Shown: in pieces, positions 6,005 through 31,319 of the stretch | Layout: each line of letters starts with the position of its first letter | How positions within the stretch are numbered: the first letter of the stretch is position 1 | NCBI GenBank assembly: GCA_045656205.1 | Contig: JAZOQS010000064.1 | Span: 1 to 34,037, forward strand | Direction: 5' to 3' | Source of the DNA: Clostridia bacterium | GTDB lineage: Bacteria; Bacillota; Clostridia; RUG12999 | Length of the DNA stretch: 34,037 nt | The notes under the pieces: generated by a model | Database searches by the model: none | What the model was told of the DNA's origin: nothing | The model's input: the letters and a program-made list of their open reading frames with translations, nothing else | Position numbers and translations under genes: made by a program

Positions 6005-6682
6005 ATGTCTGAACACAACGAAAATAACGAAAACAAAAATTTAAAAGATTTCGGGTCAATGAACATAAAAGGCAAACACGGAAATATTTTCTGCATTTCA
6101 ATCATTGGTCAGATTGAGGGGCATATCGAACTGCCGGGCGACAATAAAACAACAAAATATGAACATCTTATCCCGCTTATCGTCGCAATCGAAGAAGACG
6201 AAAATATTGACGGTGCTTTGGTTCTTTTAAACACTATGGGCGGTGATGTTGAGGCAGGGCTTGCAATTTCCGAGCTTATCGCCGGGATGAGCAAACCCAC
6301 CGTTTCTCTTGTTCTTGGCGGCGGTCACAGCATCGGAGTCCCTCTTGCCGTTGCCGCAGACTATTCTTTTATAGCCCCGTCTGCCACGATGACAATCCAT
6401 CCGGTCAGGACTACCGGTACGGTAATCAGCATTTCCCAGTCTTTTGACTATCTTTTAAAAATGCAGGAGCGTGTGCTTAATTTTATCGTAGAGCATTCGG
6501 ATATCAAAAAAGAAAAGTTGACCGAGCTTATGCTTGCGACCTCAAACCTCGCCAACGACGCCGGAACAGTCATTTACGGTTCGCAGGCGGTGGAATACGG
6601 GCTTATGAATGAAACCGGAAAGGTGTCTGATGCACTGGATAAACTTCAGCAGCTTATAAAGGAGAAAAAGAGCGAAAATTAA
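6005..6682 (+). CDS. tepA: ClpP-family protease-like protein, TepA (translocation-enhancing protein) type
   Basis: The 225-aa ORF has long blocks that I recognise from B. subtilis TepA/YmfB: [72 protein letters not shown] lies upstream. Confidence 0.8.
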
Positions 6683-8665: not shown

Positions 8666-8700
8666 ATAAAAAATCCGGGGCGTCATCTGACACCCCGGAT
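8666..8700 (-). terminator. Rho-independent terminator closing the phage-like operon
   Basis: The minus-strand RNA reads AUCCGGGG-(12-nt loop)-CCCCGGAU followed by UUUUUAU. The 5' arm and loop overlap the last endolysin codons and its TGA (8683-8685). Confidence 0.8.
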
Positions 8701-9306
8701 ATAATTTGCACACTTTCTCGCAAGCCAGTATGCGGTTTCGTCCTCTTCGAGCTTTTTAATCCAAAGCCCCTTATCGGATATAATGCCTCTTTCAGAAAGC
8801 TCACGCACAATATCATTAACTACCGTAAGTTCCATATAGCCTTCCACTTTCTTCAAAAACCGTTCCCAGCCCAGATCAAGTGTTCTGTGCGGACAGTATT
8901 TGCCCGAAAAATCCTGATGTTTTTTCACACGGTCGGTTGTCCAGCCACGTTCCGTCAGAAGCTGTGCCGTAAGTTTTGCCGCATTTTCTTCGGCTTTCAA
9001 AAACTTCTCTCCGCCCGATTTGGAATAGCAGATTTCTATTGCTATTCCCTTGCGGTTTCCTCTTCCATTCACCCCGTCTCCTGCGTGCCAGGCGTTGCGT
9101 TCAAGCGGAATTGCCTGCCGAACTTCAATATCATCTGCCGCAAAATGAAAGCTTGTTGACAAACCGTTATTTTTCATATATGAAACTTCCGCTTTTGCAG
9201 ATGCGTCATTTGATGTGTTATGTATCACAACAAATTCCGCTTCCATAGCATAAGGACATTTTATGCCATATTTTTCCGGTGATACAAAATCAATAACTTT
9301 TTTCAT
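8683..9306 (-). CDS. N-acetylmuramoyl-L-alanine amidase endolysin (Amidase_2/PGRP fold with a short CwlA-type C-terminal domain)
   Basis: Contains HNTSNDA...SFHFAADD...NAWHAGDG...GIAIEICY...HQDFSGKYCPH, the zinc-amidase motifs of Amidase_2. The last 55 aa or so (ERGIISDKGLWIKKLEED..YWLARKCANYI) resemble the Amidase02_C tail. It lies directly after the holin. Confidence 0.88.
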   Translation of the reverse strand: MKKVIDFVSPEKYGIKCPYAMEAEFVVIHNTSNDASAKAEVSYMKNNGLSTSFHFAADDIEVRQAIPLERNAWHAGDGVNGRGNRKGIAIEICYSKSGGEKFLKAEENAAKLTAQLLTERGWTTDRVKKHQDFSGKYCPHRTLDLGWERFLKKVEGYMELTVVNDIVRELSERGIISDKGLWIKKLEEDETAYWLARKCANYIRGVR

Positions 9307-9721
9307 TTATTTCATTTTCCTTTTTCCTTAAAACTTCAATTGCGCGGGTGATAACAGCAGGAACAGGTATGCCCATAAGCCCGGCATTTTCAATGATACT
9401 TATCAGTTCGTTTACTATGTAGGCAATTATAACCGCATCCCGTACAAGGCTCGTCCCCATAATTAAATCAAGTCTGCAGGCAATCAGAACAATCAGTATC
9501 GTCACACCTTTCCTGCAAATTCCTTTCCAGCCTGCCTTGGATTCCAGTGCCCCCGTTTTGGTTTTAGGGCTTTTATGAAACACCCCGGCTACAATGAGTC
9601 CTGTCACATAATCAATTCCCATAAAGACAATCAATGTTGTAAGAGAAGAATCCCATCCGCCGAAAAAAGATGCCAAAAGCCCACCGGCAGCACCGATAAA
9701 TGTTAAAATACTTACTTTCAT
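9290..9721 (-). CDS. Holin, phage_holin_4 / toxin-secretion holin family (TcdE-like)
   Basis: 143 aa with 3-4 hydrophobic helices and a charged C-terminal tail (RKKENEINEKSY). The central block GIDYVTGLIVAG...KGICRK is typical of this holin family. It overlaps the endolysin start by 17 nt. Confidence 0.8.
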   Translation of the reverse strand: MKVSILTFIGAAGGLLASFFGGWDSSLTTLIVFMGIDYVTGLIVAGVFHKSPKTKTGALESKAGWKGICRKGVTILIVLIACRLDLIMGTSLVRDAVIIAYIVNELISIIENAGLMGIPVPAVITRAIEVLRKKENEINEKSY

Positions 9722-9819
9722 TTTATATTTCTCCCAGTGTTTTTTTTACATCCTCTCTGTACTTTTCGGGGATTTGTTCAAGTTTTATTTTTTCCATCCT
9801 TATTTGTAACACAAGAAAT

Positions 9820-9975
9820 TTAATCACCCAAAAGCACCCCCTCTAAAAGCACCGCCTCGATTGCTTCAAGCCTTTCGAGCATTGTCGGCTCTACTACAAC
9901 AGTGTCTGTTGCTTTAAGCTCTTCCATTTCCTCTGCGGTCAGCTCTATGTATTCACCATTTACATACTTTTTCAT
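9820..9975 (-). CDS. Small 51-aa phage protein of unknown function (not in the ORF track)
   Basis: My translation is MKKYVNGEYIELTAEEMEELKATDTVVVEPTMLERLEAIEAVLLEGVLLGD. The ATG at 9975 overlaps the TGA of the upstream gene (ATGA). GGGGGA lies 8 nt upstream. Confidence 0.5.
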   Translation of the reverse strand: MKKYVNGEYIELTAEEMEELKATDTVVVEPTMLERLEAIEAVLLEGVLLGD

Positions 9976-10757
9976 TTTCTTATCCCCCATATTTCATAGG
10001 TTGTGCCTGCCGGCAGATATCTTACACTTCCGTCAGTAATACCGCCATTTGTCATAAATATAAATTTAAGTCTGTCAATATAATCTCTTACCATTGGCAC
10101 GCTTGGAGCAACCGTGCCACTATAAGTTTCTGCTTTTTGCATTTTAGCATAACCACCTTTACCATACTCCGCTTTATCGTGCCATAATTCAGTTCTGCAA
10201 TAAGTACCAATTACTTGAATATGAATTGTTGTATACCACTCGTCGGTATAATCTGTTATAAATTGATTTCCCATATTATAAATTTCTTTATTTAAATTAC
10301 TACCGCTATCGTTAAGAGTTTGCACTCTAAAACGTGCTTTCTCTGTACTTGCAGAGCCAGTAGCAGCTTCTTCGCTAGGTGGAATTACAAACCTTATATA
10401 AAGCTCTTTGTATTGATTAGGAAAATTCAACTGAATTGTGCTGGCTTTTTCTGTAAGTGTGTCAGCCTTAACAATTTCAAAATCCCCACATTCATTCATC
10501 GCATGGTAAACCGCTTTTGCAGAGGGGTATTGCTCATGAGTGTTTTTGTCCGATATAGCCGTTACTCTGTTTGAAACATCCTCTTTATTTTTCACTTTTT
10601 CAATAAGCTCCAGTTGTTCTTCCGTAAGCTTTTTCTGAAATCCTCTGTGTCCGCTTTCTTCAAACCCAAGATGTTTCAGATGACTGTGACTTGTTCTTTC
10701 ACCCAACTCCAACTGAAAATTTTTCTGTCCTCGCGCAGATAATTTTATTTCTGCCAT
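9972..10757 (-). CDS. Phage tail fibre / receptor-binding candidate (hypothetical)
   Basis: 261 aa, the last large ORF before the lysis cassette. The N-terminus has a His-rich stretch (SHSHLKHLGFEESGHRGF) and the C-terminal half looks beta-rich. The start was trimmed to ATG 10757, 1 nt after the upstream TAA; the track uses GTG 10766. The function is assigned by position only. Confidence 0.4.
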   Translation of the reverse strand: MAEIKLSARGQKNFQLELGERTSHSHLKHLGFEESGHRGFQKKLTEEQLELIEKVKNKEDVSNRVTAISDKNTHEQYPSAKAVYHAMNECGDFEIVKADTLTEKASTIQLNFPNQYKELYIRFVIPPSEEAATGSASTEKARFRVQTLNDSGSNLNKEIYNMGNQFITDYTDEWYTTIHIQVIGTYCRTELWHDKAEYGKGGYAKMQKAETYSGTVAPSVPMVRDYIDRLKFIFMTNGGITDGSVRYLPAGTTYEIWGIRK

Positions 10758-10758
10758 G

Positions 10759-11073
10759 TTATACACCCCATTTCACCATAAGTTCACCGCTTTTACGGGT
10801 TGATATGATGCCGCCCGGATCAATAACTGTAATCTTGTATATGTAATTCCCTATCGGAAGTTTTTTTATCTCTTCCTCCGAAAGTGTGATTTCAGAGCCG
10901 TCGGAACTTAAATCAAATCTCTTTTCTATAAGAGATTCGGCCTGTTCATTTTGCGCCACCTGAAATTCAAGAGTTGTTCCCGGTTCAAATCCATCTGCAG
11001 TTGTAATATCAATGCTGAAAGTATCTCCTGCCGTATAGGTAATATTTTCTCCGCCACAATAAATTTTTATCAT
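10759..11073 (-). CDS. Small phage tail-associated protein, probably Ig-like/beta-sandwich (hypothetical)
   Basis: 104-aa ORF with GGAGGG 5 nt upstream. It is embedded in the tail-tip gene block. I recognise no family motif. Confidence 0.35.
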   Translation of the reverse strand: MIKIYCGGENITYTAGDTFSIDITTADGFEPGTTLEFQVAQNEQAESLIEKRFDLSSDGSEITLSEEEIKKLPIGNYIYKITVIDPGGIISTRKSGELMVKWGV

Positions 11074-11082
11074 ATTACCCTC

Positions 11083-11841
11083 CTATCTCATGCACACACC
11101 GTCAATGGTAATACTATATGTGTTTGTGCTTACGCTTCCGGAAATTGACATATGTCTGAGTATCAGCTTGTTTCCGCTTACTTCAAATTGTGTTTCTCTG
11201 GTTTTCCCGAAAGCCGGAACAGTTAATGTTTTCCCCGAATAGAAGACACCGTTTGCAAAACACCATGAAATATGTCCGTCTTCCCTTGGAAAAAGCCGCA
11301 CCTTTATAAATGTTTCCGTAGCAAATGTATAATCAAATTCTATATAACTGCAATTGCTTTTCGGAAGCTCGATTTCGCCTATTATTTCACCTGCCGGCAA
11401 ATTATCACGCATTAATAAAGTTCCCGAAAAACTTGCAGCATACCTTTCCGTATCGGCAGTCTTAAGCTGTGCAAACTCTCTTTTGTCCGACACATCCCCG
11501 TTTTCATCAATCTCTGCCAGAAGAACATAATCTCCCGTCGGGAAAAGGGTATCCGCTTTCACTTCACAAACGCCCGCAAGTGTGTTGTTGTAAAAATAAA
11601 TATAATTTTTTGTTCCTGACGTTACATCAACCGTAGTGCCTTCATCATCAACCTCAATCCTGCATCCGTCTTTAAACACAGCCTGTCCCTTGCAAATTTT
11701 AAATACACCGTCTGCCACTGTCACCATGCAGCTTGACTGTGATTCCTCAATAACCCCTTTAGTCAGAATGCTCGCCCGGATTGCATTGATATCATCCGCT
11801 CCGTAAACCACATTATCCTTAAAATCATAACTGTACGCCAT
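11083..11841 (-). CDS. Phage tail-tip / fibre protein (hypothetical)
   Basis: 252-aa ORF with GAGGTG upstream, immediately after the hub-like gene. The function is assigned by position only. Confidence 0.35.
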   Translation of the reverse strand: MAYSYDFKDNVVYGADDINAIRASILTKGVIEESQSSCMVTVADGVFKICKGQAVFKDGCRIEVDDEGTTVDVTSGTKNYIYFYNNTLAGVCEVKADTLFPTGDYVLLAEIDENGDVSDKREFAQLKTADTERYAASFSGTLLMRDNLPAGEIIGEIELPKSNCSYIEFDYTFATETFIKVRLFPREDGHISWCFANGVFYSGKTLTVPAFGKTRETQFEVSGNKLILRHMSISGSVSTNTYSITIDGVCMR

Positions 11842-11853
11842 TTATCTCACCTC

Positions 11854-12840
11854 TTAAATATTTTTTAAAATAACCTGACTTGTTTTAATCCCGTCTTCCC
11901 AACCAAGACTTATTCCGGAAATCTGTTTTCTTTCCGTTCTTGCTATTTTCCCGTTGACATACTGCACACGCACAATATCCCCCGGCATAAAGTCCTTGCC
12001 TGCTTCAAGTCCCCAAACATCTGTGACAATTTCAGACTTTATATTTTTACCTTTTATAAAACTTTCCGCTTCACTCTCAACCGTTGCATATGATACACAT
12101 TCCGAGCTGAAGATTCCTTTCTTTTCATCCCTTACATATCTGGTCCATACGGGATCTGGAAATTCACCATCTTTAAAATCCTGCTCCTGTTCATACCAGC
12201 AGGAAGAATAATAGTCATCAATGCAATAGGTATATTCTGTATTAAATGCGTTTTTGTTCGCCTCGGACAAAATAAGGTTTGTATGCCTTGGCGAAAAAAC
12301 TTTAAAGACCCACTGTTTTTTAATTCTGTCAAAAAACAGGCTGTGTCCGGCATTTTTTCTTAAAAGCAGGTCGGAAACCACTTCTGATAACGGATTATAT
12401 GTATTCCTCCAGAAAGTGTCCATATCTTCAAGACCTGCTTTTTCACCAAGCACAAAGTTTTCCTGCTCCGAAAAAGCATTGCTCACGATATATCTTGCAA
12501 CCTCTTCCGGATTGCATTTTACCGGCAAATCGCTTGTGATAAATTTGGGAACCACCTTTCTGGACAAAAGCCAGTTGCATGTTTTTCCGTAAATGGCAAC
12601 ATCCTCGCCAAGCCTTATTCCCGTTACAATCCCCTGCAAATCCCCCTGAACAATGACCGGGATTTTATCATTTTCCCAGTCCATATTGTCAAGTATTATT
12701 TCCGCCGTAGCCCTATCTGCAAGGGTGTGGATTTCAAATGTCCCCACCGAGTTGAAATATACCGTCCAGTTGGAAGAAATCACATTATTATCAATATGTA
12801 AAAGCTCGAAATCGGTATTGTATATCCTGATATCCTCCAT
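11854..12840 (-). CDS. Tail hub / Tal-like protein (Siphovirus Gp37-like / minor structural protein N-terminal type)
   Basis: 328 aa. The N-terminus (MEDIRIYNTDFELLHIDNNVISSNWTVYFNSVGTFEIHT) follows the pattern I associate with Gp37-like/Tal N-domains. The ATG overlaps the Dit stop (TGATG at 12838-12842). It lies directly after Dit. Confidence 0.55.
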   Translation of the reverse strand: MEDIRIYNTDFELLHIDNNVISSNWTVYFNSVGTFEIHTLADRATAEIILDNMDWENDKIPVIVQGDLQGIVTGIRLGEDVAIYGKTCNWLLSRKVVPKFITSDLPVKCNPEEVARYIVSNAFSEQENFVLGEKAGLEDMDTFWRNTYNPLSEVVSDLLLRKNAGHSLFFDRIKKQWVFKVFSPRHTNLILSEANKNAFNTEYTYCIDDYYSSCWYEQEQDFKDGEFPDPVWTRYVRDEKKGIFSSECVSYATVESEAESFIKGKNIKSEIVTDVWGLEAGKDFMPGDIVRVQYVNGKIARTERKQISGISLGWEDGIKTSQVILKNI

Positions 12841-13685
12841 CAGTATATCCCCTCCCGGTAGTTACTGTAATAAGTGCAGATAATACTTATATTTTCACCC
12901 TCATTTGTGTGAGATGCACAAATGTGATTTTTCCCCGGAGCAAGCCAGAATTTGTTCAAAAAAGTGTCATCGGATATAAATTGAATGATATTTCCCCGTT
13001 TTGAACTTGTCACCCTTCGTTCCGATATATCTATGGTAATAATTTCGTCTTTAACCGTATCAGTCTCAAGTTTCAGACTTTGCCCGGTAGTATTGTTGAG
13101 AATCACAATTTCTCCTGCCGCATTGCCACCATCACCGCAGTTGTAAATTTTTATTACCGGTTCAACATTTATTTCGCCCATATTTTCAACAAATGCCTGT
13201 GTGGTTTTCTCTGTAAACACACACGGAAAAATTATATTTCCCTCCAGCAGGTCTTTTCTTTCAAACGCGGATATTTCGGTCGGCTCGGTATCGGTAAAAT
13301 ATACTCCGTCGGCTGTAAGGGTTAATATAAAATTCATAAACCCTCTGTTTCTTGAGCCTTCTTCAAAATCCACCTGACTGCAATATATCATTCTCTTTTT
13401 ATTATCAAAATCCAGAACAAGTTTTCCCGGATCATGAAGAATTTTCATCATATTCTCTGCCCGTCCTTTGCCCTCCAGACTGATGTCACCGCTTATGATA
13501 ATTGTTCTTGACTGAGTAACTGCCGACAACGTTTTTTGTCCGTCACGCCCGGCAAAAGTAACCGTGTTATATTTTTTCTGCGGATTTCCCAGACCGGAAA
13601 GGGCAGTAACCCTCACCGGCCCGGCACCGCTCAAAGACATTTCAACACTGCCCTGTGCATTTTCAAAAAAAAGTTTTTTATTCAA
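12840..13685 (-). CDS. Distal tail protein (Dit, phage tail family)
   Basis: 281-aa ORF directly downstream of the tape measure. It starts at TTG 13685 with AAAGGGGG 7 nt upstream. Size and synteny fit siphovirus Dit. Confidence 0.6.
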   Translation of the reverse strand: MNKKLFFENAQGSVEMSLSGAGPVRVTALSGLGNPQKKYNTVTFAGRDGQKTLSAVTQSRTIIISGDISLEGKGRAENMMKILHDPGKLVLDFDNKKRMIYCSQVDFEEGSRNRGFMNFILTLTADGVYFTDTEPTEISAFERKDLLEGNIIFPCVFTEKTTQAFVENMGEINVEPVIKIYNCGDGGNAAGEIVILNNTTGQSLKLETDTVKDEIITIDISERRVTSSKRGNIIQFISDDTFLNKFWLAPGKNHICASHTNEGENISIICTYYSNYREGIY

Positions 13686-13708
13686 ACAAGTGCCCCCTTT
13701 CTGATGAT

Positions 13709-14380
13709 TTAAGGTCTTCTCATGGCGCTTATCGCCTGAACTTTTCTCGCTTCGCTGAGCTGTTCGCTTACCGTCTGCTTACTGCTGTAAAAATTATAGC
13801 TCGGGTTCGAATAAGTAATGCTTGAAGAACTTGAGAATGCATTCCCCGATGATATGGCAGAATTAATTTTTTCCGCAGATGAAATCACCATTTTCCTTAC
13901 TTCTTCCATACAGGAATTTATGCTGTTTCTAAATCCGTCTCCAAAGGTTGCTCCGCCTGTTTTTCCATAAGCAAAAAATTCGTCTTTAAGCCCGTCAAAT
14001 TCTGCTCTTATGGCATCCTCAATGCCAAAATAAATCTGCCCGGCGTTATGTGTAAGTGCATCTCCGACGCTGAAAATATCACGGATAATTTCATCTTTAT
14101 AATTCATCAGATTGCCAAGACTTGTATTTAAAAATTTTTCCTCCGCCTTTGCGACCGCGTCATAATAGCTTTGATAATTTTCCTCGGGCAGCATACTGCC
14201 GGAAGCCCCCTGCCACGCCGCAGTATTATCCAGTACAGCAATTTTTGAAGCAATTGACGTAACCGTCGAAATAATCTGTTTTGCAACAGAAGTAATTGAG
14301 TTGTATCCTGATTTTGCAAGTCTTGAAATTTTTGTAAGATTTGCTTTGAATCTTTTCATAGAAATGGTGTTTTTAGCCAT
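13709..14380 (-). CDS. Tape measure protein, unusually short (223 aa)
   Basis: It occupies the slot between the Gp15-like chaperone and Dit. By eye it is helical and Ala/Ser/Ile-rich, with a Ser-rich tract near the C-terminus. GGGGGTG lies upstream. The call rests mainly on synteny. Confidence 0.5.
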   Translation of the reverse strand: MAKNTISMKRFKANLTKISRLAKSGYNSITSVAKQIISTVTSIASKIAVLDNTAAWQGASGSMLPEENYQSYYDAVAKAEEKFLNTSLGNLMNYKDEIIRDIFSVGDALTHNAGQIYFGIEDAIRAEFDGLKDEFFAYGKTGGATFGDGFRNSINSCMEEVRKMVISSAEKINSAISSGNAFSSSSSITYSNPSYNFYSSKQTVSEQLSEARKVQAISAMRRP

Positions 14381-14394
14381 AAATTACACCCCCT

Positions 14395-14961
14395 TTAAAA
14401 AAGCTGACCGACTGTCTGCGCAAATTCACGTTCCTTTTCTTCACGGCTTCTCTGGTCCGGAAGCTGCCATATTTTTTTAAGTTCATGGCATCTGTTTTTA
14501 ACTTCTCTGTCCTTTATTTCAGACAAGTCAATACTTCTTATCTGCATAACCTCCGCAAGCTTACTGTCAGCATTAAGCCCTTTAAAAAGAGCTTTGAATT
14601 TATACCAGTGCATATCCTCAACCGATAAATCAATGCCATACTGACTCATAAACGCCGAAAAAATAAGGTCTGCATCATACAAAAAGCTGTAAACCGGTTT
14701 TTCTGCTAAACCGCCTTCTACTGTTTTTTTATCATTCCCACGGTAAAATTCCCGGCACGCTTTTATTGCTTTTTCCATACTGGACGGCATCTTTTTAAGG
14801 CAAACAGGCAGAATAACTGCCGGCTTGTCCTCATCTTTTATTCTGCCATCAGTTAAAACAGTTTCGAAAATTATCCATCTTTTAAAATCTGTATTAATCA
14901 GACATTCTTCTCCGTCAACAGTTACCCTGTCGGGCAGACGGTCGGTCAGTATACTAAACAT
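14395..14961 (-). CDS. Tail assembly chaperone, bacteriophage Gp15-like
   Basis: 188 aa starting MFSILTDRLPDRVTVDGEECLINTDFKRWIIFE, the motif style of Phage_Gp15 proteins. The ATG at 14961 overlaps the end of the major tail gene by 8 nt. The track ORF extends to 15135 in an overlapping frame. Confidence 0.6.
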   Translation of the reverse strand: MFSILTDRLPDRVTVDGEECLINTDFKRWIIFETVLTDGRIKDEDKPAVILPVCLKKMPSSMEKAIKACREFYRGNDKKTVEGGLAEKPVYSFLYDADLIFSAFMSQYGIDLSVEDMHWYKFKALFKGLNADSKLAEVMQIRSIDLSEIKDREVKNRCHELKKIWQLPDQRSREEKEREFAQTVGQLF

Positions 14962-15442
14962 TTTCGGTAAATACGCAGGTCTGCCAGCCGTCCTGGGTTG
15001 AAACGGTGCCAAACACCTTTTCACCTGCAGCATTAAGCGTCCCCGAATAGGTATATGTATATCCCGAATCCCCCTCTTTGTCGGGAATAAGCGTAAAATC
15101 ACGTCTGACCGCACTGCACACACCATTTTCTTCACTGCTTAAATCAACCATCACAATGCTTCTCAGCGCCCCGTCGCCTACTTTTTCGCTGTTGAAAATG
15201 TCGGCAATATCGGCGTGAACCGCGTTATCTTTGAATAAATCAAAAGAAAAAACAAGAGAGGTTGTATAACCAACCACGTCATTTCTTTCAAAATCCTCGT
15301 CAACATACTGACGTTTATGTTCAATTGGATTTTTGTTTACCGATATCTCGGTAAATCCTGTCATTCTCGCAAAAATGACTTTGCCGTCAGCTGAAATTCC
15401 GTAAAACGGAATTTTTTCGCTTCTTTTAACAATGTTACTCAT
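14954..15442 (-). CDS. Major tail (tube) protein
   Basis: 162-aa ORF between the completion proteins and the chaperone. It has an ATGA overlap with the upstream gene (15439-15442). Size and position are typical of A118/SPP1-type tube proteins. Confidence 0.6.
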   Translation of the reverse strand: MSNIVKRSEKIPFYGISADGKVIFARMTGFTEISVNKNPIEHKRQYVDEDFERNDVVGYTTSLVFSFDLFKDNAVHADIADIFNSEKVGDGALRSIVMVDLSSEENGVCSAVRRDFTLIPDKEGDSGYTYTYSGTLNAAGEKVFGTVSTQDGWQTCVFTENV

Positions 15443-15828
15443 ATCCTTACTCCTTTCTCGTAATAAACAAGAGTGAACTTCATATCATAAATACCCGCAC
15501 CCACTTCCGTTTTGATAAGTGCAGGTCCTTCCGTAATGTCAATATACTGGGCAATTTTATCTCCACCCAGACAGGGCAGATTTCCTTTGGCGACCCACTC
15601 GGAGAATTCCCTGAAGATGCTGCCCGCCTGCCCTGTGAAATTTTCGCGCACCAGTAGCTTGAAATTATACTGCCCGAGCATATCTCCGGAAGTATATCTT
15701 TTTACAATCTGTTTGCCGCCGTCCGGCACTATCGCGGCACTACCCGACACGGGCGAAAGAAAATCTTCCCGCAGAGCGATGCCCGAAAATGCAGGACATT
15801 TCTTTAAAAAATCCACCATTTCTTTCAT
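15439..15828 (-). CDS. Tail completion / head-tail joining protein (minor capsid protein-type)
   Basis: 129-aa ORF, third of three small genes between the capsid and tube genes. GAGGGA lies upstream. Confidence 0.45.
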   Translation of the reverse strand: MKEMVDFLKKCPAFSGIALREDFLSPVSGSAAIVPDGGKQIVKRYTSGDMLGQYNFKLLVRENFTGQAGSIFREFSEWVAKGNLPCLGGDKIAQYIDITEGPALIKTEVGAGIYDMKFTLVYYEKGVRI

Positions 15829-15829
15829 A

Positions 15830-16147
15830 CTATCCCTCGCATATAAGCTTTATGTGACGCACATAACTTGTGCCTCTGCTGTTATCTCTGACACCGGTTA
15901 CGGTAAGTGCATCAGGCGGACAATCCCCAAAATGACGTCCTATCGCAACCTTGTCCCCACAGTAAACATCCTGCGGATTTTTCACACTTACCCTGATGAT
16001 GCTCTGCCCGGAATATTTTACTCCGCGAAAGCCCTCATTAATGGCTCTGCAGTAGTGAATCATTGCGTTTTTCAGAATAAAACTTTCCCATTTTCCGCTA
16101 TCGCCGTCAAATCTGAATATTGTTATTTCCTGTTTTCCTCTCAGCAT
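15830..16147 (-). CDS. Head closure / stopper-like head-tail joining protein
   Basis: 105 aa starting from ATG 16147 (MLRGKQEITIF), 1 nt after the upstream TGA. The track ORF starts at 16189, inside the previous gene. Confidence 0.4.
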   Translation of the reverse strand: MLRGKQEITIFRFDGDSGKWESFILKNAMIHYCRAINEGFRGVKYSGQSIIRVSVKNPQDVYCGDKVAIGRHFGDCPPDALTVTGVRDNSRGTSYVRHIKLICEG

Positions 16148-16148
16148 A

Positions 16149-16487
16149 TCATTCACCTGCCCCGGCATACATAAGTCCGCTGTCAGCAAGATAAACCGCT
16201 ACCGCGTCATATATGTTTTTTGACACATCTGCCCCCGAGTAGCTTACACTGTATCCGTCCGCATTTTCACTTGAAATTCCGAGTCTGCAATTATCAAGCC
16301 ACAAAAGCTCCGCCACGTTGCAAACCGCAAGTTTTACGCTTTCTGTTCTGTCACCCGGATTTCTGCCGAAAATGAGTCCGTCCACATAGCTTTGCGCTTT
16401 TCTTATGTACTTTTTAAACTCAGAGGCCGGAATCAGTGTTCCCCTGTACTCATTGCTGTAATAATCATAATCTATTGTAATTGTCAT
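16149..16487 (-). CDS. Head-tail connector (gp6/gp15-like adaptor)
   Basis: 112-aa ORF, first after the capsid gene, with GGGGTG upstream. Size and position fit adaptor proteins. Confidence 0.5.
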   Translation of the reverse strand: MTITIDYDYYSNEYRGTLIPASEFKKYIRKAQSYVDGLIFGRNPGDRTESVKLAVCNVAELLWLDNCRLGISSENADGYSVSYSGADVSKNIYDAVAVYLADSGLMYAGAGE

Positions 16488-16504
16488 ATTTTCACCCCTT
16501 TATG

Positions 16505-16532
16505 GCAGATGCCGCAAAAATGCGGCACCTGC
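16505..16532 (-). promoter_or_regulatory. GC-rich stem-loop immediately after the capsid gene
   Basis: The minus-strand RNA reads GCAGGUGCCGCA-UUUU-UGCGGCAUCUGC, a 12-bp stem with one G-U pair. It is preceded rather than followed by a U-run. It lies between the capsid stop (16542) and the next start (16487). Confidence 0.55.
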
Positions 16533-16541
16533 AAAAAAAGA

Positions 16542-17504
16542 TTATCCCACTTTGATTTTTCTTAAAACACCTGCCGCACGGGTAGCTTTAAGTGCAACGG
16601 CTGAAATCATTTCAACCTCACCTTTTTTAACCGCACCCGGTTCAGCCATATTGGGAAGATATGTATTTACAATGTTGTTACCTTCGGGAGACACAGCGTG
16701 AACACCGTCAAGACCGATTCTTACGGCATAAAGTGATGTTTCGCCCTCATCGGAAACAGAAATAATAGGAGATTCGCTGCCTGCTCCCTGACCCGGTTTG
16801 TCGCCGAGAGAAATGATTGGAATACCTGCATATTTTGTAACAGGAGCGCCAAAAGCATCTGCCTCATTTGTTGAGAAATAACCGCTTCTTCTTGCAATAC
16901 CGTTGATAACCGCCGCAAGTTTTCTGTTAACTAAAATTGCAGTAGGAGTACCATCAAGGGCGGACAGCATTTTGTCAAGCTCGTCCATGAAAAGATTGCC
17001 GTTAGCAGTGATGTTTGCAGAAGTTGAAAGGTCTATAGCCGCATCGGGAATATATTCTGTATTGCTGTCTTTAAGTGCAGTATCAATACCGTCAAAAGCA
17101 TTGCCGCTGTCAGCATCACCGTTGATGAATGTGTCGGTGAAAAGTGCTTTTGTAGCTTTGATTTTCTGTGAAAGCTCAAACTGGATAAGATCCATAATCT
17201 GCTGTTCATCGCTCTGAAGAATTCTGTCCACTTCAAAAGAACCGCCAAAGGGTTTGAGTGTAACGGAATACTGAGTTGTTTTAGCCTCCTGAGCAGTATA
17301 GTCAGAACCGATACTTCTGAACGCTGCTGTGGGCAGAGTTGTCACCCTGTTATAAACATAAGTGAGAGATTTACCTCCCTGTGCTTTTGCGTTGTTGTCA
17401 AACAACATAAGGTCAAAAAGCGGGTCATGTCTGAATTCATCAATCACCTGCGCCGCAAGTTTACTGTCTGATAATGTCTGTGCATCTGAAAGTGTTAATG
17501 CCAT
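16542..17504 (-). CDS. Major capsid protein (HK97-fold, SPP1 gp13 / A118-type)
   Basis: 320-aa ORF directly after the scaffold gene. The N-terminus is MALTLSDAQTLSDSKLAAQVIDEF. The C-terminal half, ...LYAVRIGLDGVHAVSP...GEVEMISAVALKATRAAGVL, is typical of this capsid family. GGAGG lies upstream. Confidence 0.8.
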   Translation of the reverse strand: MALTLSDAQTLSDSKLAAQVIDEFRHDPLFDLMLFDNNAKAQGGKSLTYVYNRVTTLPTAAFRSIGSDYTAQEAKTTQYSVTLKPFGGSFEVDRILQSDEQQIMDLIQFELSQKIKATKALFTDTFINGDADSGNAFDGIDTALKDSNTEYIPDAAIDLSTSANITANGNLFMDELDKMLSALDGTPTAILVNRKLAAVINGIARRSGYFSTNEADAFGAPVTKYAGIPIISLGDKPGQGAGSESPIISVSDEGETSLYAVRIGLDGVHAVSPEGNNIVNTYLPNMAEPGAVKKGEVEMISAVALKATRAAGVLRKIKVG

Positions 17505-17526
17505 AATAAATTACCTCCAAAAATTT

Positions 17527-18015
17527 TTAATTTTTTCCGAAAAGTTTCTGCCTGAGTTCATCTTCGGCAGAAACCTCTCTTTTTGCACTGCCCTGTCTCA
17601 TTCCGGTTGCCGCCGGAGACAGGGGTTTTTCAAAAAGATACTCATTTTCACTGCGAATAATTTCAAGCTGTTTTTCAACCGATGCCGCATCCTGATTTTC
17701 AAGGTTCAAAAGAGCTCTTACCGCAGTGAGATTTTTTGCTCCCGAGCTTTTAATTAACATATCAACGGCGTGTCTGTTTTCAGCATCCGCCATCTTCAGT
17801 TTAAGCTGCTCAATCTCCTCTTTATAAACTTTTGCAGATTCTTCACCGATTTTTTCCATCTGCGAGCCCAGAGCATCATACTTATCCCTGCTTACATATC
17901 CGCCGTCTGCAAGATTTGCAAGTTTGAGCGGTGTTTCGCTCTGTTTGTTGTAGCTTTCGATTTTTTGTTTAAACACCTCAAAATCTTCGCCGAGAGCGTC
18001 TTTTAAAAAATCCAT
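17527..18015 (-). CDS. Capsid scaffolding protein (phage GP20-like)
   Basis: 162 aa, highly charged and coiled-coil-like (EEIEQLKLKMADAENRHAVDMLIK). The GP20-style core is ...LANLADGGYVSRDKYDAL. It lies immediately upstream of the capsid gene. Confidence 0.7.
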   Translation of the reverse strand: MDFLKDALGEDFEVFKQKIESYNKQSETPLKLANLADGGYVSRDKYDALGSQMEKIGEESAKVYKEEIEQLKLKMADAENRHAVDMLIKSSGAKNLTAVRALLNLENQDAASVEKQLEIIRSENEYLFEKPLSPAATGMRQGSAKREVSAEDELRQKLFGKN

Positions 18016-18132
18016 TTTCCCTCCGATAAATGCAAGAAGTTTATATCCCGTTCTGCAAGGGAATATGACGGTTTATATGTCCCGCCGCGACAAAAATTCA
18101 GTTAACTGATGAGCTGATTATACAATGTAAAA

Positions 18133-18384
18133 TCAGCTACTACTATCATTATTTTTAAGTCCGCTTATAAGCTCTTCAAGCATACCGTTATCCCCGCTGT
18201 CAGCAGTATTTTTGGTAAACTTTTCAATCAGCACCCCCAGCGCGGACGCAATCTGGTTAATGGGTGCATTTTCAAGCTTCTCCCTGCTCGAAAGCTCGGA
18301 CAAATACATGTCCACAACATCGCACAGTTTTCCCTGCAGTTCTTCTATATGAAGCCGCAGATTTTTCTGTTTCTTTTTCCTCAT
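18133..18384 (-). CDS. 83-aa basic-N-terminus protein translationally coupled to the portal (hypothetical)
   Basis: The ATG at 18384 overlaps the portal TGA (ATGA). The sequence starts MRKKKQKNLRLHIEELQGKL... It occupies the slot where SPP1-like phages carry a gp7-type minor head protein but is far shorter. Confidence 0.45.
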   Translation of the reverse strand: MRKKKQKNLRLHIEELQGKLCDVVDMYLSELSSREKLENAPINQIASALGVLIEKFTKNTADSGDNGMLEELISGLKNNDSSS

Positions 18385-19718
18385 ATACCGCCCCGGCTTT
18401 TAATTTCGTTTACCTTGCTCAGCGCCTGATTTTCCGTCATACCATAAACTCTGACAAAATATTCCGCACTGTCTATGAGACCGTGTTCAAGTTCTCTTAT
18501 TGCTCTGTCCGACAGGGTCTGCGTATCTTCAATAATACTGTCATCAAAAAATACGCTTATTTCAGCATTTTCAAATCCACCCATTTCAAGCACTTTTGCC
18601 GCAAGCTCGCAGATAGCCTTTCTCAGTATAATTTCATGCTTTTTAACACTTCTGAAAAGCTCGTTTTTATCGCTCATAACCTCGGTAGCAGTTTTTAAAG
18701 CTCCATTTTCATAACTGTATCTGCCCGCACCAAGACCGCATTTTGCAGAAAGCAGGTCAAGATTTTTCTTAAGCGCTTTTTCATGAGGCTCGGCACGAAG
18801 TTCCATATTAATCTCTCTAAGTTCTCCCAGCGACTTGTCGCTCATAACATAAAACTCTGTGTCGTTATCATCAAAAATAGGCATTATACCATTGTCCGAC
18901 CTCTGAATATGTGCCATCCCCGCTGGAATGAGTATTCTCTTTTTACCGAGTCTGAACTCGTTCTGATAACTGTCATACACCAGGTCAATCCCCTGCAGAA
19001 CATCAAGTGCGTTTGCAAAAACCGATATGCCCATAGGGTTGTCCGGGTCAAAATTATTGACAACATTAGGAGTAATAATCTGGAACATAGGCTTGTCGCT
19101 GTCTGTAAAAAATTCTGCCGTAACTCCATCGGGCAGCTCCGTTTCCGTAAGTCCGCCGTTTTTCTTTTTTTCAAAGAGCTTGTTGACAATTTTGTACATG
19201 CCCTTTTCTTTCAGATGCATATTGAGGTATATATACCTTTTACCGCCAAGCACCTTTTCGCTCGCAAAAGCACATTCCGTTATCTCTCCGTTGTCCCACG
19301 AAAGAGGGTAAATCATATCCGCTCTGATATAATCTATCGCAACATCCCCCTCGTCATAATATTCCACAAATGCACCCGTTCCCATAGCGTAGGTTATCTC
19401 AACAAGACGGTTGCTTCGCACACGGAAATTGTTTTTGTCAAGGACAGACTGTAAAAACAAATCCGCCTCCTTGTCATAAGCACGGATGGTTGTCTTTTCG
19501 TTGAGTAGCAGGTCAGCCCAGTCCTCACACACCTTTTTGCTCATCCCCAGAGAATACCTGTTTCTCTTAACTGCACGTTTCCCGTTAAACTGACTGTACT
19601 GGTGAAAGCTGGGAACTTTCCCCGAATACCACTTGAGCCATAAGTTTATACAGTTGTAAAACTCACTGCTTATCAGTCCGTATCCCATTTCGGACAGTTT
19701 TTTTCGGATTGTATCCAT
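18381..19718 (-). CDS. Portal protein, SPP1 Gp6-like
   Basis: 445 aa from ATG 19718 (MDTIRKKL), with AAGGAG 7 nt upstream; the track starts at 19739. The conserved region ...YSGKVPSFHQY...KRNRYSLGMSKKVCEDWADLLLNEK... is characteristic of SPP1-type portals. Confidence 0.85.
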   Translation of the reverse strand: MDTIRKKLSEMGYGLISSEFYNCINLWLKWYSGKVPSFHQYSQFNGKRAVKRNRYSLGMSKKVCEDWADLLLNEKTTIRAYDKEADLFLQSVLDKNNFRVRSNRLVEITYAMGTGAFVEYYDEGDVAIDYIRADMIYPLSWDNGEITECAFASEKVLGGKRYIYLNMHLKEKGMYKIVNKLFEKKKNGGLTETELPDGVTAEFFTDSDKPMFQIITPNVVNNFDPDNPMGISVFANALDVLQGIDLVYDSYQNEFRLGKKRILIPAGMAHIQRSDNGIMPIFDDNDTEFYVMSDKSLGELREINMELRAEPHEKALKKNLDLLSAKCGLGAGRYSYENGALKTATEVMSDKNELFRSVKKHEIILRKAICELAAKVLEMGGFENAEISVFFDDSIIEDTQTLSDRAIRELEHGLIDSAEYFVRVYGMTENQALSKVNEIKSRGGI

Positions 19719-19854
19719 GTTTTTTCTCCTTTCCGGCATTTTTTGTAAATATTTACCGACCTATAATACCCCCTGCCTAACTCCTACTACTATCAACACT
19801 TTTGTTCATTCTTGCAAATTTGCCATATTTTTCATAAATATTTGTCACATTTTA

Positions 19855-19883
19855 TTGACAAAATGCGCATACTTGTATATAAT
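19855..19883 (+). promoter_or_regulatory. Consensus sigma-A promoter of the rnf operon
   Basis: TTGACA (19855-19860), an exact 17-nt spacer, then TATAAT (19878-19883). This is about 40 nt upstream of the rnfC ATG, which has an AAGGAG SD. Confidence 0.75.
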
Positions 19884-19923
19884 TATAATATTATATTTAT
19901 AAATACAAGGAGCAGGTGTTATT

Positions 19924-21231
19924 ATGAAAACAACCGCTTTCAGAGGTGGAATTCATCCGCCTTATCAGAAATCACTTACAAACAGCTGTGAAACAGTTTT
20001 TTTAGACCCCGGTCAGTATGTGTACATACCACTTATCCAGCATATAGGCGCACCACTTAGCCCCATCGTTTCGGTGGGCGATGAGGTTCTGTGCGGTCAG
20101 AAAATCGGTGATGTTGACGCTTTCGTGTCCTCTCCCGTTCATTCCAGTGTGTCGGGAACGGTTAAAGAAATCAAAAAATATCTCCATTCAAACGGCACCA
20201 TGGTGGATACAGTCGTTATTGAAAATGACTTTAAGTACAAAACCATCCCCCAGCAAAAGAAAAACTTCCGCAAAACCCCGTCGGATGAAATTCTCCACAT
20301 CATCCGCGAGGCAGGTATTGTGGGAATGGGTGGCGCAGGCTTCCCTGCACATATAAAGCTCAACCCGCAAAAACCCATAGACTGCGTTATTATAAACGGT
20401 GCAGAATGTGAGCCCTATCTTTCTTCCGACCACCGCGCTATGGTTGAACAGCCGGAGGATCTCATCCGCGGACTTGAAATTGTTATGAAAACCGTCCGCG
20501 CAAAACAAGGTGTAATTGCAATTGAAGATAATAAACCCGATGCAATAAAACGTATTGGTGAGCTTATCGGCAAAAAACCAATTGATGTTGCAGTTCTTAA
20601 AACAAAATATCCTCAGGGTTCGGAAAAACATATTATAAAATCCGTCCTCGGCAGAACAGTTCCCTCGGGAAAACTCCCCGCTGATGTGGGTGTTGTGGTA
20701 ACCAATGTGGACACAGCCATTTCAATCAAAAATGCTATGGAAACGGGCATGCCAATCATACGCCGCAGGGTTACCGTGTCAGGGCTTGGGATAAACAAAC
20801 CCACCGTCTTTTCAGTACGCATCGGTACACCGTTTGAAGAAGTAATCGCTGCAGCAGAGGGTCTGACCGACGATGTTTTAAAAATCGTTAGTGGCGGCCC
20901 TATGACAGGCACACAGATTTTTGACACTTCCGTTCCCGTTATTAAAACCACTTCGGGAATTCTCGCACTTTCCTCAAAAGAAACTGCTCTTTTTGAAGAA
21001 GGTCCCTGCCTGAGATGCGGCAAATGCGTGAGCGTATGTCCTATGGGACTTTTGCCACTTAACATATCAAGAGCAGGCAGAACAAATGATTCTGACAGTG
21101 CTGTTAAATTAAACGCCGCCGACTGTGTAGAATGCGGCTGTTGTTCATACATCTGTCCTGCGCGCAGGAATTTGCTTGAAAGTATACGTCTCGCAAAAGC
21201 ACAGGCACAGCTTCTTATGAGAAAAAAATAA
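19924..21231 (+). CDS. rnfC: Rnf electron transport complex subunit C
   Basis: 435 aa with GMGGAGFP (NADH/FMN site) and two 4Fe-4S motifs, CLRCGKCVSVCP and CVECGCCSYICP. Confidence 0.95.
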   Translation: MKTTAFRGGIHPPYQKSLTNSCETVFLDPGQYVYIPLIQHIGAPLSPIVSVGDEVLCGQKIGDVDAFVSSPVHSSVSGTVKEIKKYLHSNGTMVDTVVIENDFKYKTIPQQKKNFRKTPSDEILHIIREAGIVGMGGAGFPAHIKLNPQKPIDCVIINGAECEPYLSSDHRAMVEQPEDLIRGLEIVMKTVRAKQGVIAIEDNKPDAIKRIGELIGKKPIDVAVLKTKYPQGSEKHIIKSVLGRTVPSGKLPADVGVVVTNVDTAISIKNAMETGMPIIRRRVTVSGLGINKPTVFSVRIGTPFEEVIAAAEGLTDDVLKIVSGGPMTGTQIFDTSVPVIKTTSGILALSSKETALFEEGPCLRCGKCVSVCPMGLLPLNISRAGRTNDSDSAVKLNAADCVECGCCSYICPARRNLLESIRLAKAQAQLLMRKK

Positions 21232-24902: not shown

Positions 24903-25442
24903 GTGAATATAGGCCGAAAGATTAAAAGACTCAGACAGGAAAAAAATCTCACTCAGGATGAACTTGCACTTCGTTGCGAGCTGTCCAAGGGATTTATTTC
25001 CCAGCTTGAAAGGGATTTAACCTCCCCAAATTTGTCAACTCTTGCCGACATTTTAGAGTCGCTTGGCATAACGCTGAGTGAATTTTTCAGTGAAGATGTT
25101 GATGAAAAAATTGTTTTCAGCGAAAATGACTATTTTGAGGCAGAAAACGAAGAAATGGGCTATTCTGTCGAATGGATAATTCCCAATGCACAGAAAAACG
25201 AAATGGAACCCATAATGCTCACCTTAAAGCCGGGCGGTGCCTATAAAGAAGAAACCGCTCACAGCGGTGAGGAATTCGGCTATGTAATCTGCGGAAGCAT
25301 TACTTTGCACCTTGGCGGCAAAAAATATAAAGCCAAAAAAGGTGAATGTTTCTGTTATAAACCAAACAACAACCACTACATTTCCAATAGCGGAAAAACG
25401 GTTGCAAAGATACTCTGGGTGTCTTCACCACCGTCATTTTAA
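24903..25442 (+). CDS. XRE-family HTH transcriptional regulator with a C-terminal cupin domain
   Basis: N-terminal HTH_3 region (IKRLRQEKNLTQDELALRCELSKGFISQLERD) and a cupin_2-like C-terminus (HSGEEFGYVICGSITLHLGG). It starts at GTG with AGGTG upstream. Confidence 0.85.
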   Translation: MNIGRKIKRLRQEKNLTQDELALRCELSKGFISQLERDLTSPNLSTLADILESLGITLSEFFSEDVDEKIVFSENDYFEAENEEMGYSVEWIIPNAQKNEMEPIMLTLKPGGAYKEETAHSGEEFGYVICGSITLHLGGKKYKAKKGECFCYKPNNNHYISNSGKTVAKILWVSSPPSF

Positions 25443-31308: not shown

Positions 31309-31319
31309 GCGGTGTTAAT

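Follow-up and report, generated by a model that had tools for sequence, protein, structure and literature searches.

Very few lineages are known to have gene transfer agents (GTAs), which are difficult to distinguish from dead prophages. In architecture, the closest precedent for the locus described here appears to be BhGTA/VSH-1 of Brachyspira hyodysenteriae (Brachygtaviriformidae). According to Kogay et al. 2022 (PMC9662315), it consists of a 16.3-kb head-tail-lysis cluster lacking terminase, integrase and replication genes and of a single-copy, highly conserved terL outside the cluster in all genomes with the capsid gene, its "genome" being dispersed over several loci. In host biology, the nearest system would be FpGTA of Faecalibacterium prausnitzii, a GTA-like element of gut Clostridia made up of two operons 125 kb apart, conserved genus-wide, with a small TerS devoid of an obvious DNA-binding domain and with lysis genes inside the element (PMC12946183). 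Here we analyze a head-tail-lysis module that lies next to rnfC in a 34,037-bp contig of a Clostridia bacterium, taken whole from an NCBI metagenome-assembled genome (MAG) and hereafter called the window. The module probably belongs to a vertically inherited, multi-locus, siphovirus-derived GTA-like (viriform) system of a Monoglobales-like clade of gut Clostridia; we consider it very likely that this element has been domesticated and is maintained by selection, and is not in decay. The system appears to be split over at least two sites, the structural operon at rnfC and the gene for the large terminase subunit, TerL, between apgM and hrcA-grpE-dnaK. An earlier note on this DNA had been aware of no described locus of the kind; the terL outside the Brachyspira cluster and the existence of FpGTA in gut Clostridia provide the missing precedents.

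Open reading frames (ORFs) of the window were listed mechanically, flanks included, and protein roles were searched for in Pfam, PHROGs, NCBIfam and PDB; the window was also scanned for tRNA genes and Rfam families. The module comprises 18 intact ORFs, all on the minus strand, from position 19718 (19739 in the mechanical listing) down to 8683. The earlier note was right about their common direction and integrity, its count of about 19 being one too high. Fourteen of the 18 roles are backed by family, profile or homology searches, a tally that includes an 83-aa ORF with pairwise homology only and a 104-aa ORF matching a PHROG with no known function. Profile searches reproduced the portal, scaffold, capsid, adaptor, tail completion, tube, Gp15, Dit, Tal, holin and amidase assignments made from the sequence beforehand; the 223-aa "tape measure", the three distal ORFs of 252, 264 and 56 aa and ORF119 found no family match in Pfam, PHROG or NCBIfam. 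The profile of the tube orthologues also matches a solved "phage tail tube protein" (PDB 11ok_A, E 5e-8), and a PDB sequence search with the major capsid protein gave nothing useful. The start of the Gp15 gene was placed at Met59 of the mechanical ORF, in agreement with the gene calls of relatives. The candidate tape measure, which returned no match in PDB sequence searches either, has the same length, 223-224 aa, in all relatives. The intrinsic terminator said to close the operon is present (Table 1), as is the short distance of 205 nt between the portal start (19718) and the rnfC ATG (19924), the 445-aa product agreeing with the database entry. The list of missing phage functions also held for the most part: there is no TerL anywhere in the 34-kb window by tblastn, no integrase, repressor or replication gene among its proteins by family searches, no tRNA in the window and no att-like repeat flanking the module. 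As discussed below, the alleged lack of a TerS is probably wrong.

The rnfC-portal junction and the gene order are common to at least seven species-level genomes or assemblies. The carriers compared were the window, L001/L002 (ENA, Logan), L003/L016 (GCA_045648785.1), L005/L013 (GCA_045577655.1), L010, L011 ("Monoglobales bacterium" GCA_041678125.1) and L012, all on independent NCBI, ENA or Logan assemblies differing in sample, pipeline and repository; portal homologues at 72-93% identity are present in many assemblies. In three relatives, identities are 80, 78 and 72% for the portal, 80, 76 and 65% for RnfC and 74, 73 and 62% for SMC. All 14 shared genes are intact in each genome, with a dN/dS of 0.06-0.32 for every shared gene of the module as against 0.02-0.31 for core genes (rnf, MATE, SMC), and dS exceeds 1 throughout. 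The portal is 72-80% identical among the compared relatives (dN 0.14-0.21) and the major capsid protein 85-92% (89, 91 and 85% in three of them; dN/dS 0.06-0.10), the capsid gene being among the most conserved of the region, with rnfA and an HTH-cupin gene comparable. The proteins of the module diverge in pace with those of flanking core genes, under purifying selection. Shared junction and co-divergence, the latter judged from pairwise distances on 3-4 taxa, indicate that the module occupied this site before the divergence of lineages whose core proteins are 62-80% identical today, and that purifying selection has acted on it from then on. The comparison of presence, synteny and dN/dS recommended in the earlier note has in this way come out in favor of a conserved locus. 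Close relatives were found neither in 50,697 phage records (best portal 48%) nor in IMG/VR (best capsid 47%), where a scan with the capsid alignment returned merely two 47% matches, on short contigs. The nearest portals of the phage collection, 31-48% identical, are encoded directly after TerL. The closest record, MT835524 (portal 48%), was considered as kin of the module and discarded, only TerL and portal being in common.

The plastic part of the module is its distal end, with the receptor-binding ORFs, the holin and the chromosomal neighbor. The 252-aa ORF is kept in relatives at 44-56% identity; the ORFs downstream from it are swapped between species for ones encoding proteins 442, 440 (with LRR_5) or 328 aa long, and within this region of the window the 104-aa ORF alone has a family match (phrog_1084). 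The endolysin is 67-74% identical in relatives, the holin merely 27-31%. The order of the two lysis genes is holin then amidase in the window and amidase then holin in relatives (L001:20816-21253, L005:20418-20852), pointing to remodeling of the cassette in the window's lineage. The gene beyond is a G1PDH-like dehydrogenase gene in the window and a UDP-glucose dehydrogenase gene in L001 and L005.

A search with the TerL of a related locus (L008, see below) recovered a clade of 407-410-aa TerLs of the PBSX family, mutually 71-81% identical and scored at 170 bits by TIGR01547. Three of them come from assemblies that also hold the module: L018 from GCA_041678125.1 (as L011), L022 from GCA_045648785.1 (as L003) and L024 from GCA_045577655.1 (as L005). 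In all three, the TerL gene is alone among core genes, in the order hom-apgM-[ppa]-TerL-hrcA-grpE-dnaK-dnaJ-prmA. A fourth lineage (L025-L028) has the same TerL locus and is known from that locus alone. The orphan TerLs do not vary in their Walker A (GSVRSGKT), Walker B (AYCDE), TTNPD and nuclease Asp motifs, and their dN/dS, 0.03-0.11, is similar to that of the adjacent hrcA; the proteins look functional. Portal, TerL, rnfC and hrcA all group the three genomes as ((G1,G2),G3), and portal and TerL are each 58-61% identical to the contiguous TerL-portal pair of L008. The matching grouping and the equal distance to this pair indicate that the orphan TerL and the portal of the module derive from one ancestral element that was later split. 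The search for an orphan terminase advocated in the earlier note was thus rewarded, and "terminase-less" is a fair description of the window locus but not of the system as a whole. In GCA_045577655.1, TerL is about 13 kb or more away from the module, as measured from contig flanks; for the window, from which TerL is absent, the distance would be at least 8.7 kb. Being unlinked to its TerL, the element would not be able to move itself as a unit, short of heads with a capacity far above its own length. A CIRCE operator (controlling inverted repeat of chaperone expression), TTAGCACTC-N9-GAGTGCTAA, separates the orphan TerL from hrcA (L018:4024-4070; L022:7265-7310). Its position suggests that the heat-shock operon keeps its own control and that TerL is not simply its first gene.

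The 83-aa ORF downstream from the portal gene, previously left anonymous, is 44% identical (E 2e-18) to an 89-aa gene product whose gene overlaps the TerL start in L008, and also matches part of a 133-aa gene product encoded ahead of TerL in another related cluster (L006). Homology to genes in the canonical TerS position leads us to call it TerS-like. The ORF has a dN/dS of 0.18-0.30. Its AlphaFold model is all-helical, with three main helices, and weak (pLDDT, the predicted local distance difference test score, 64); Foldseek found no match to it in PDB. Searches of Pfam, PHROG, NCBIfam and PDB gave no helix-turn-helix (HTH) or other match, and neither this ORF nor the L008 homologue has a match in the phage collection, the homologue being without a match in Pfam, PHROGs or NCBIfam as well. 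GTA-type TerS proteins, as described by Sherlock et al. 2019 (PMC6854486), are short and helical, with the oligomerization and TerL-interaction parts kept and the HTH DNA-binding domain of the N terminus lost. The 83-aa protein recalls the short TerS proteins of RcGTA and FpGTA, which lack a DNA-binding domain (PMC6854486, PMC12946183), a resemblance rather than a demonstration.

Structural and terminase loci share a sequence element. The arrangement TGATAGTAGTA-N15/16-TAnnAT precedes the portal and scaffold genes in all seven genomes, and every genome has exactly two copies of TGATAGTAGTA per module (P1 and P2). The spacer between rnfC and the portal gene is diverged save for three blocks: TGATAGTAGTA, the TAnnAT box and the palindrome GTAAATATTTAC. 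With up to one mismatch allowed, GTAAATATTTAC has two sites in the window, the one at P1, which is exact, and another within a coding sequence at 31431-31442, which has one mismatch, for a chance expectation of 0.09. At P2, a leader of about 80 nt is near-invariant and non-coding, despite saturated dS in the neighboring genes. The possibility that it is an RNA element was looked at and is not claimed, RNAalifold having given one compensatory pair only; no Rfam family matched the window at gathering thresholds, and permissive ones gave no match either in the two stretches rescanned, 17950-19950 (P1, P2 and leader) and 31250-34037. The third location (P3) is some 45-55 nt before each orphan TerL start, where TGATAGTAGTA recurs with 0-2 mismatches. 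A strong hairpin (-16 to -23 kcal/mol, z -3.6 to -6.4) comes next; its sequence varies by species with pairing kept, and its right arm holds the Shine-Dalgarno (SD) sequence and runs into a U-tract. No standard sigma-70 -35 hexamer is present at 16-18 nt, and a consensus scan found no sigma-70 type promoter on this strand at P1. Consensus sequences for LexA/Cheo, Rex and sporulation sigma factors do not fit the conserved blocks. P1, P2 and P3 may therefore be seen, tentatively, as three co-regulated promoters served by a dedicated factor, and GTAAATATTTAC and TCAGTTAACTGA are probable repressor sites or operator candidates.

For co-regulation, particle production, DNA content and delivery we propose the following scheme. 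A trans-acting sigma-like or activator factor would recognize TGATAGTAGTA in the -35 region and turn on three units together: portal and TerS-like genes from P1; scaffold, capsid, tail and lysis genes from P2; and TerL from P3. The palindromes just past the -10 boxes of P1 and P2 would probably bind a repressor. Ahead of TerL, the species-specific hairpin and its U-run would terminate and mask read-through from apgM, and transcripts from P3 would start inside the hairpin, thereby exposing the SD. The capsid protein would form procapsids nucleated by portal and scaffold, and TerL, with the small TerS-like protein, would fill the heads by a headful mechanism. The cargo would most likely be host DNA, as the TerS-like protein has no recognizable DNA-recognition domain. 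Connectors and a short, non-contractile tail of about 30-35 nm would then be added to the heads. This length comes from the ruler relationship of about 1.5 Å per residue, which turns 223 aa into roughly 30-35 nm. Finally, holin and amidase would lyse the producer cell, and the fast-evolving distal proteins would decide which cells the particles bind.

Tailed, DNA-filled particles need not serve gene delivery; as in a PBSX-like defective-phage bacteriocin, they could be selected for killing or inhibiting related strains on adsorption. In favor of this are the TerL, a member of the PBSX family (TIGR01547), the lysis cassette at the end of the module and a receptor-binding region that turns over fast between species, as it would for strain-level antagonism. 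Against this, the predicted tail is non-contractile, very short and sheathless, whereas PBSX is myovirus-like; strong purifying selection on capsid, portal, TerS-like protein and TerL suggests that filled heads matter, whereas F- and R-type tailocins dispense with heads; and no immunity or toxin gene was seen in the locus. The definition of F-type tailocins (flexible-tail particles such as monocin, with no genes but those for tail and lysis) does not fit a locus in which portal, scaffold, capsid, TerS-like protein and unlinked TerL are kept under purifying selection. A killing particle of the PBSX sort is, in our judgment, unlikely though a serious contender. A decaying prophage remnant, its left arm (terminase, early genes, integrase) recently deleted next to rnfC, would explain why the window lacks TerL, integrase, repressor and replication genes, and truncated relatives do exist (head-only L014; L008 with TerS, TerL and portal only). 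This option, which the earlier note had entertained as a recent truncation, does not survive the comparison: the same junction recurs in at least seven species-level genomes with core proteins 62-80% identical, 14 of 14 shared genes are intact in each at saturated dS and a dN/dS not above 0.32, and the non-coding promoter blocks are invariant. One recently transferred segment is excluded by the co-divergence of the flanking rnf and SMC genes. Moreover, the locus falls outside the definition of a prophage (integrase/att, lysogeny, replication, contiguous terminase, strain-specific presence). We consider such a remnant highly improbable.

Absence of packaging functions in cis is also what one would expect of a structural module in need of a co-resident helper phage, or exploited by one (a satellite-like "parts store"), with the apgM-hrcA TerL an unrelated orphan. 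That incomplete sets of virion genes can persist is known from capsid-forming satellites. Yet the locus has no integrase, att, replication or interference gene and its chromosomal site is fixed; TerL and portal are equally far (58-61%) from a contiguous pair and share the host branching order; TerL bears the promoter motif of the module; and the helper would have to persist across genera. Phage-inducible chromosomal islands (PICIs), capsid-forming ones included, are likewise a poor fit to a fixed site with a full tail set and no integrase, att, replication or repressor genes. We give a helper-dependent module little credence. As for a mis-assembly of phage and chromosomal reads at 19719-19923, which the earlier note had flagged as fatal to its claim, it has the abrupt junction in its favor and nothing else; the junction, conserved motifs included, recurs in independent assemblies from different samples, pipelines and repositories, and the probability of such an artifact is negligible.

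The GTA-like reading draws on observed gene content, intactness, synteny, co-divergence, purifying selection, the unlinked TerL of sister genomes and the shared motif. Kept rnfC junction, co-divergence, TerL at a second locus and shared upstream motif also uphold the domesticated locus with packaging and regulation in trans that had been the other option of the earlier note. A number of points weigh against the GTA-like reading. Retention of capsid and terminase suits a PBSX-like killing particle as well as a GTA, as does, equally, all of the genomic evidence. The system is known here from its genes. All genomes are MAGs or metagenome contigs, so that the linkage of contigs to organisms is that provided by binning; the TerL locus was seen in three sister assemblies and is presumed for the genome from which the window comes. 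The argument that the element "cannot package itself" derives from the unlinked TerL. The TerS assignment is based on homology to a gene in TerS position, with a weak model and no PDB match, the promoter function of TGATAGTAGTA on position and conservation, and the designation of the 223-aa protein as tape measure on position and constant length.

Table 1. Features of the rnfC-linked module and its upstream boundary (window coordinates)
Feature	Position	Strand	Evidence or remark
Divergent rnfC promoter, TTGACA-17-TATAAT	19855..19883	+	12/12 consensus; boundary, outside the element
P1 element TGATAGTAGTA, putative -35 region of portal promoter	19785..19795	-	Invariant in seven genomes within otherwise diverged spacer
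P1 -10-like hexamer, TATTAT	19763..19768	-	16 nt after TGATAGTAGTA; TAnnAT conserved at this spacing
Perfect 12-bp palindrome GTAAATATTTAC, candidate operator	19745..19756	-	Between -10 and SD; invariant in all relatives
Portal, 445 aa, SPP1/A118 type	18381..19718	-	PF05133 5.6e-23; phrog_533 5e-107; TIGR01542
83-aa TerS-like protein	18133..18384	-	ATGA-coupled to portal
P2 element TGATAGTAGTA	18138..18148	-	Exact second copy, within last codons of 83-aa ORF; even synonymous positions fixed in relatives
P2 putative -10, TATAAT	18117-18122	-	15 nt after TGATAGTAGTA
Perfect 12-bp palindrome TCAGTTAACTGA	18098..18109	-	Just after P2 -10; invariant in seven genomes
Conserved leader ahead of scaffold gene	18016..18097	-	Two short hairpins; repeated (A/G)ATATAAAC at 18071-18080, 18039-18049
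Scaffolding protein	17527..18015	-	PF06810 8.6e-9; phrog_24130, phrog_194
Major capsid protein, HK97 fold, epsilon15 gp7-like	16542..17504	-	phrog_212 1e-64; NF045672 214 bits (cutoff 75)
Head-tail adaptor	16149..16487	-	phrog_541 2.5e-22
105-aa connector-region protein	15830..16147	-	No family match; position and length kept in all relatives
Tail completion protein	15439..15828	-	phrog_3266 3.7e-15
Tail tube protein, 162 aa	14954..15442	-	phrog_3099 9e-35; weak NF047353 match
Gp15-family protein, chaperone position	14395..14961	-	PF06854 2e-41; phrog_706 9e-47
Candidate tape measure, 223 aa	13709..14380	-	Position between Gp15 and Dit
Distal tail protein (Dit)	12840..13685	-	PF22768, PF05709; phrog_33 7e-19
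Gp37/Tal-like baseplate hub	11854..12840	-	PF14594 6.6e-13; phrog_538
Variable receptor-binding region, ORFs of 252, 104, 264, 56 aa	9820..11841	-	Fiber candidates
Holin (Phage_holin_4_1)	9290..9721	-	PF05105 1e-38
Endolysin, N-acetylmuramoyl-L-alanine amidase (Amidase_2)	8683..9306	-	PF01510 9e-19; phrog_3088 9e-69
Intrinsic terminator closing operon	8673..8700	-	12-bp stem, 8 G-C pairs, 4-nt loop, T-run

Core genes flank the module on both sides: plsY, der, DUF512, yceD, metA and genes for a ClpP-like protein, a HAD protein and the G1PDH-like dehydrogenase on the lysis side; rnfCDGEAB, an HTH-cupin regulator gene, MATE, SMC and ftsY on the portal side. The divergent rnfC promoter sits in a stretch of about 20 nt that is missing from relatives, which accounts for the 205-nt spacer here as compared with about 160 nt there. 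The HTH_3-cupin (PuuR-like) regulator encoded after rnfB (24903-25442, plus strand) is the region's most conserved protein (84-94% identity, dN/dS 0.02-0.04) and is syntenic in all relatives. It was considered as repressor of the module and found no support: its best match is PuuR-like and neither palindrome recurs nearby. Two kilobases past the lysis end, a lone gene of the ClpP family (6005-6682, plus strand; Pfam CLP_protease 3e-21) has sub-threshold similarity to phage head maturation proteases (NF045542, 44 bits for a cutoff of 120; PHROGs 53, 1684 and 94 at 1e-9 to 1e-11), and the sequence GGATAGCAATA upstream from it is three mismatches away from the promoter element of the module. Its product might be a prohead protease that has been displaced, or else a protease of the ordinary cellular kind. 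The last 2.7 kb of the window, seemingly free of ORFs (31321-34037, plus strand), are in fact one long membrane-protein ORF that runs off the contig end. The reading of this part as a non-coding region was rejected; the ORF starts at 31321 and was unlisted because it is not closed.

Related gene sets were found elsewhere. One is a compact cluster of about 12 kb (L006:7720-19404; also L007) present on at least 24 contigs from many gut assemblies. It contains, in this order, genes for a DUF1492/phrog_36 regulator, a 133-aa TerS-like protein, TerL, portal, scaffold, capsid, connectors, tube, Gp15, a 399-aa tape measure candidate, Dit, a Gp37-like protein and a 280-aa product. Lysis, integrase and replication genes are missing from it, and its neighbors are a LexA-like gene on one side and ETF genes on the other. 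The regulator and TerS-like genes are each preceded by a repeated, promoter-like motif, TTTCCGAnTTTTCCGnTTTCGG-N4/5-TAT(T)AT. The cluster looks like another GTA-like element, of a different lineage of gut Clostridia; its GC content (0.456) sets it apart from Faecalibacterium. Another set is a mini-locus (L008:8482-11761, L019:9742-13009, L020, L021) with genes for an 88/89-aa TerS-like protein, TerL and portal and two tiny ORFs, one of them CDIF630_02480-like. Its site is fixed after hydABC-type hydrogenase genes, and TerL is 85% identical across an NCBI MAG and three JGI metagenomes. This locus may represent a remnant, or else the half that handles packaging in another split system. Finally, a head-only set (L014:6178-10025) encodes portal, a 92-aa TerS-like protein, scaffold, capsid (71% identical to the window's), adaptor and DUF6751 at another chromosomal site, preceded by GlpP/HAD/DAO genes and followed by barstar and GH38 mannosidase genes; no tail genes lie within 6 kb of it, and the TGATAGTAGTA motif is missing.

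It is conceivable, if doubtful at present, that the window locus belongs to a wider family, as yet undescribed, of gut Clostridia GTA systems that are dispersed and derived from siphoviruses. Such a family would exist in three states at fixed sites: the Monoglobales type (structural operon and orphan TerL), the L006 type and the L008 type (TerS, TerL and portal only), each of which appears to have its own dedicated promoter motif. In the Monoglobales type, with TerL uncoupled behind a hairpin that insulates it from read-through, DNA packaging would then be licensed separately. Long reads from stool viromes show GTA-like packaging in several Clostridia with no assigned locus (PMC12946183); the element family is an obvious candidate for these signals and, if real, could explain part of them.

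Kogay et al. 2022 (PMC9662315) give six criteria for GTAs. Three of the properties listed there can be read from the loci analyzed here: caudoviricete-derived proteins for a tailed particle (portal, scaffold, capsid, adaptor, tail completion, tube, Dit, Tal); full endogenization over multiple loci devoid of autonomous replication or integration functions; and vertical inheritance with host co-diversification (pairwise distances, 3-4 taxa). The others are that the element is not fully packageable in its own particle, that mostly random host DNA is packed and that it is delivered to cells. No paper connecting Monoglobales with GTAs was found in the library searched. Taken together, the data offer good support for an undescribed, independently domesticated GTA-like system, of a kind already known rather than a new one. 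What it adds is the orphan-TerL locus, the relocated TerS-like gene and the promoter element tying the loci together, as well as a case in which comparative evidence alone tells such a system from a dead prophage. It provides an uncultured-dominated order of gut Clostridia with a testable system (two loci, a TerS-like gene and invariant candidate operators), and the 11-bp promoter element gives a means of locating the regulator and any further loci.

The described systems depart from this one in various ways. The gene sources here would be temperate siphoviruses of the A118/SPP1 type, to judge from the A118-type portal, Gp15, Dit and Tal; those phages are complete viruses, with terminase, replication and lysogeny genes and tape measures several times longer. 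PBSX of Bacillus subtilis is, likewise, a defective prophage kept in a Firmicutes chromosome, with a TerL of family TIGR01547. Its late genes are under a dedicated sigma-like factor, and release depends on lysis. Unlike the present system, PBSX is myovirus-like and forms a single contiguous element of about 28 kb with its own repressor, sigma factor, TerS and TerL, and it kills and does not transduce. RcGTA of Rhodobacter capsulatus (Rhodogtaviriformidae) is also siphovirus-like, multi-locus, vertically inherited and co-divergent with its hosts, and its TerS (gp1), to which the 83-aa protein may be likened, is short and helical with no N-terminal DNA-binding domain (PMC6854486). Its split is the reverse one, TerS and TerL heading the main cluster and lysis and fiber genes lying elsewhere; it has a head maturation protease, whereas only a scaffold is found here, and the lineages are unrelated. 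FpGTA is set apart by gene content: TerS and TerL are in operon I beside the portal, the particle is podovirus-like and 8.4-8.9 kb are packed in 40-nm heads (PMC12946183). Here, by contrast, there is a siphovirus-type tail set (tube, Gp15, tape measure candidate, Dit, Tal), TerL is the one gene displaced, and the TerS-like gene comes after the portal gene. The likeness to BhGTA is one of architecture; BhGTA is from Spirochaetota, and its proteins mostly lack detectable viral homologues. BhGTA has been shown experimentally to package and transduce DNA, whereas the present system is deduced from genomes. BhGTA reportedly packages 7.5 kb, and we know of no report of a shared promoter motif linking its cluster to terL. 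As what looks like a second, independent case of the BhGTA-type split, the Monoglobales system suggests that phages have repeatedly been domesticated by way of a displaced motor gene.

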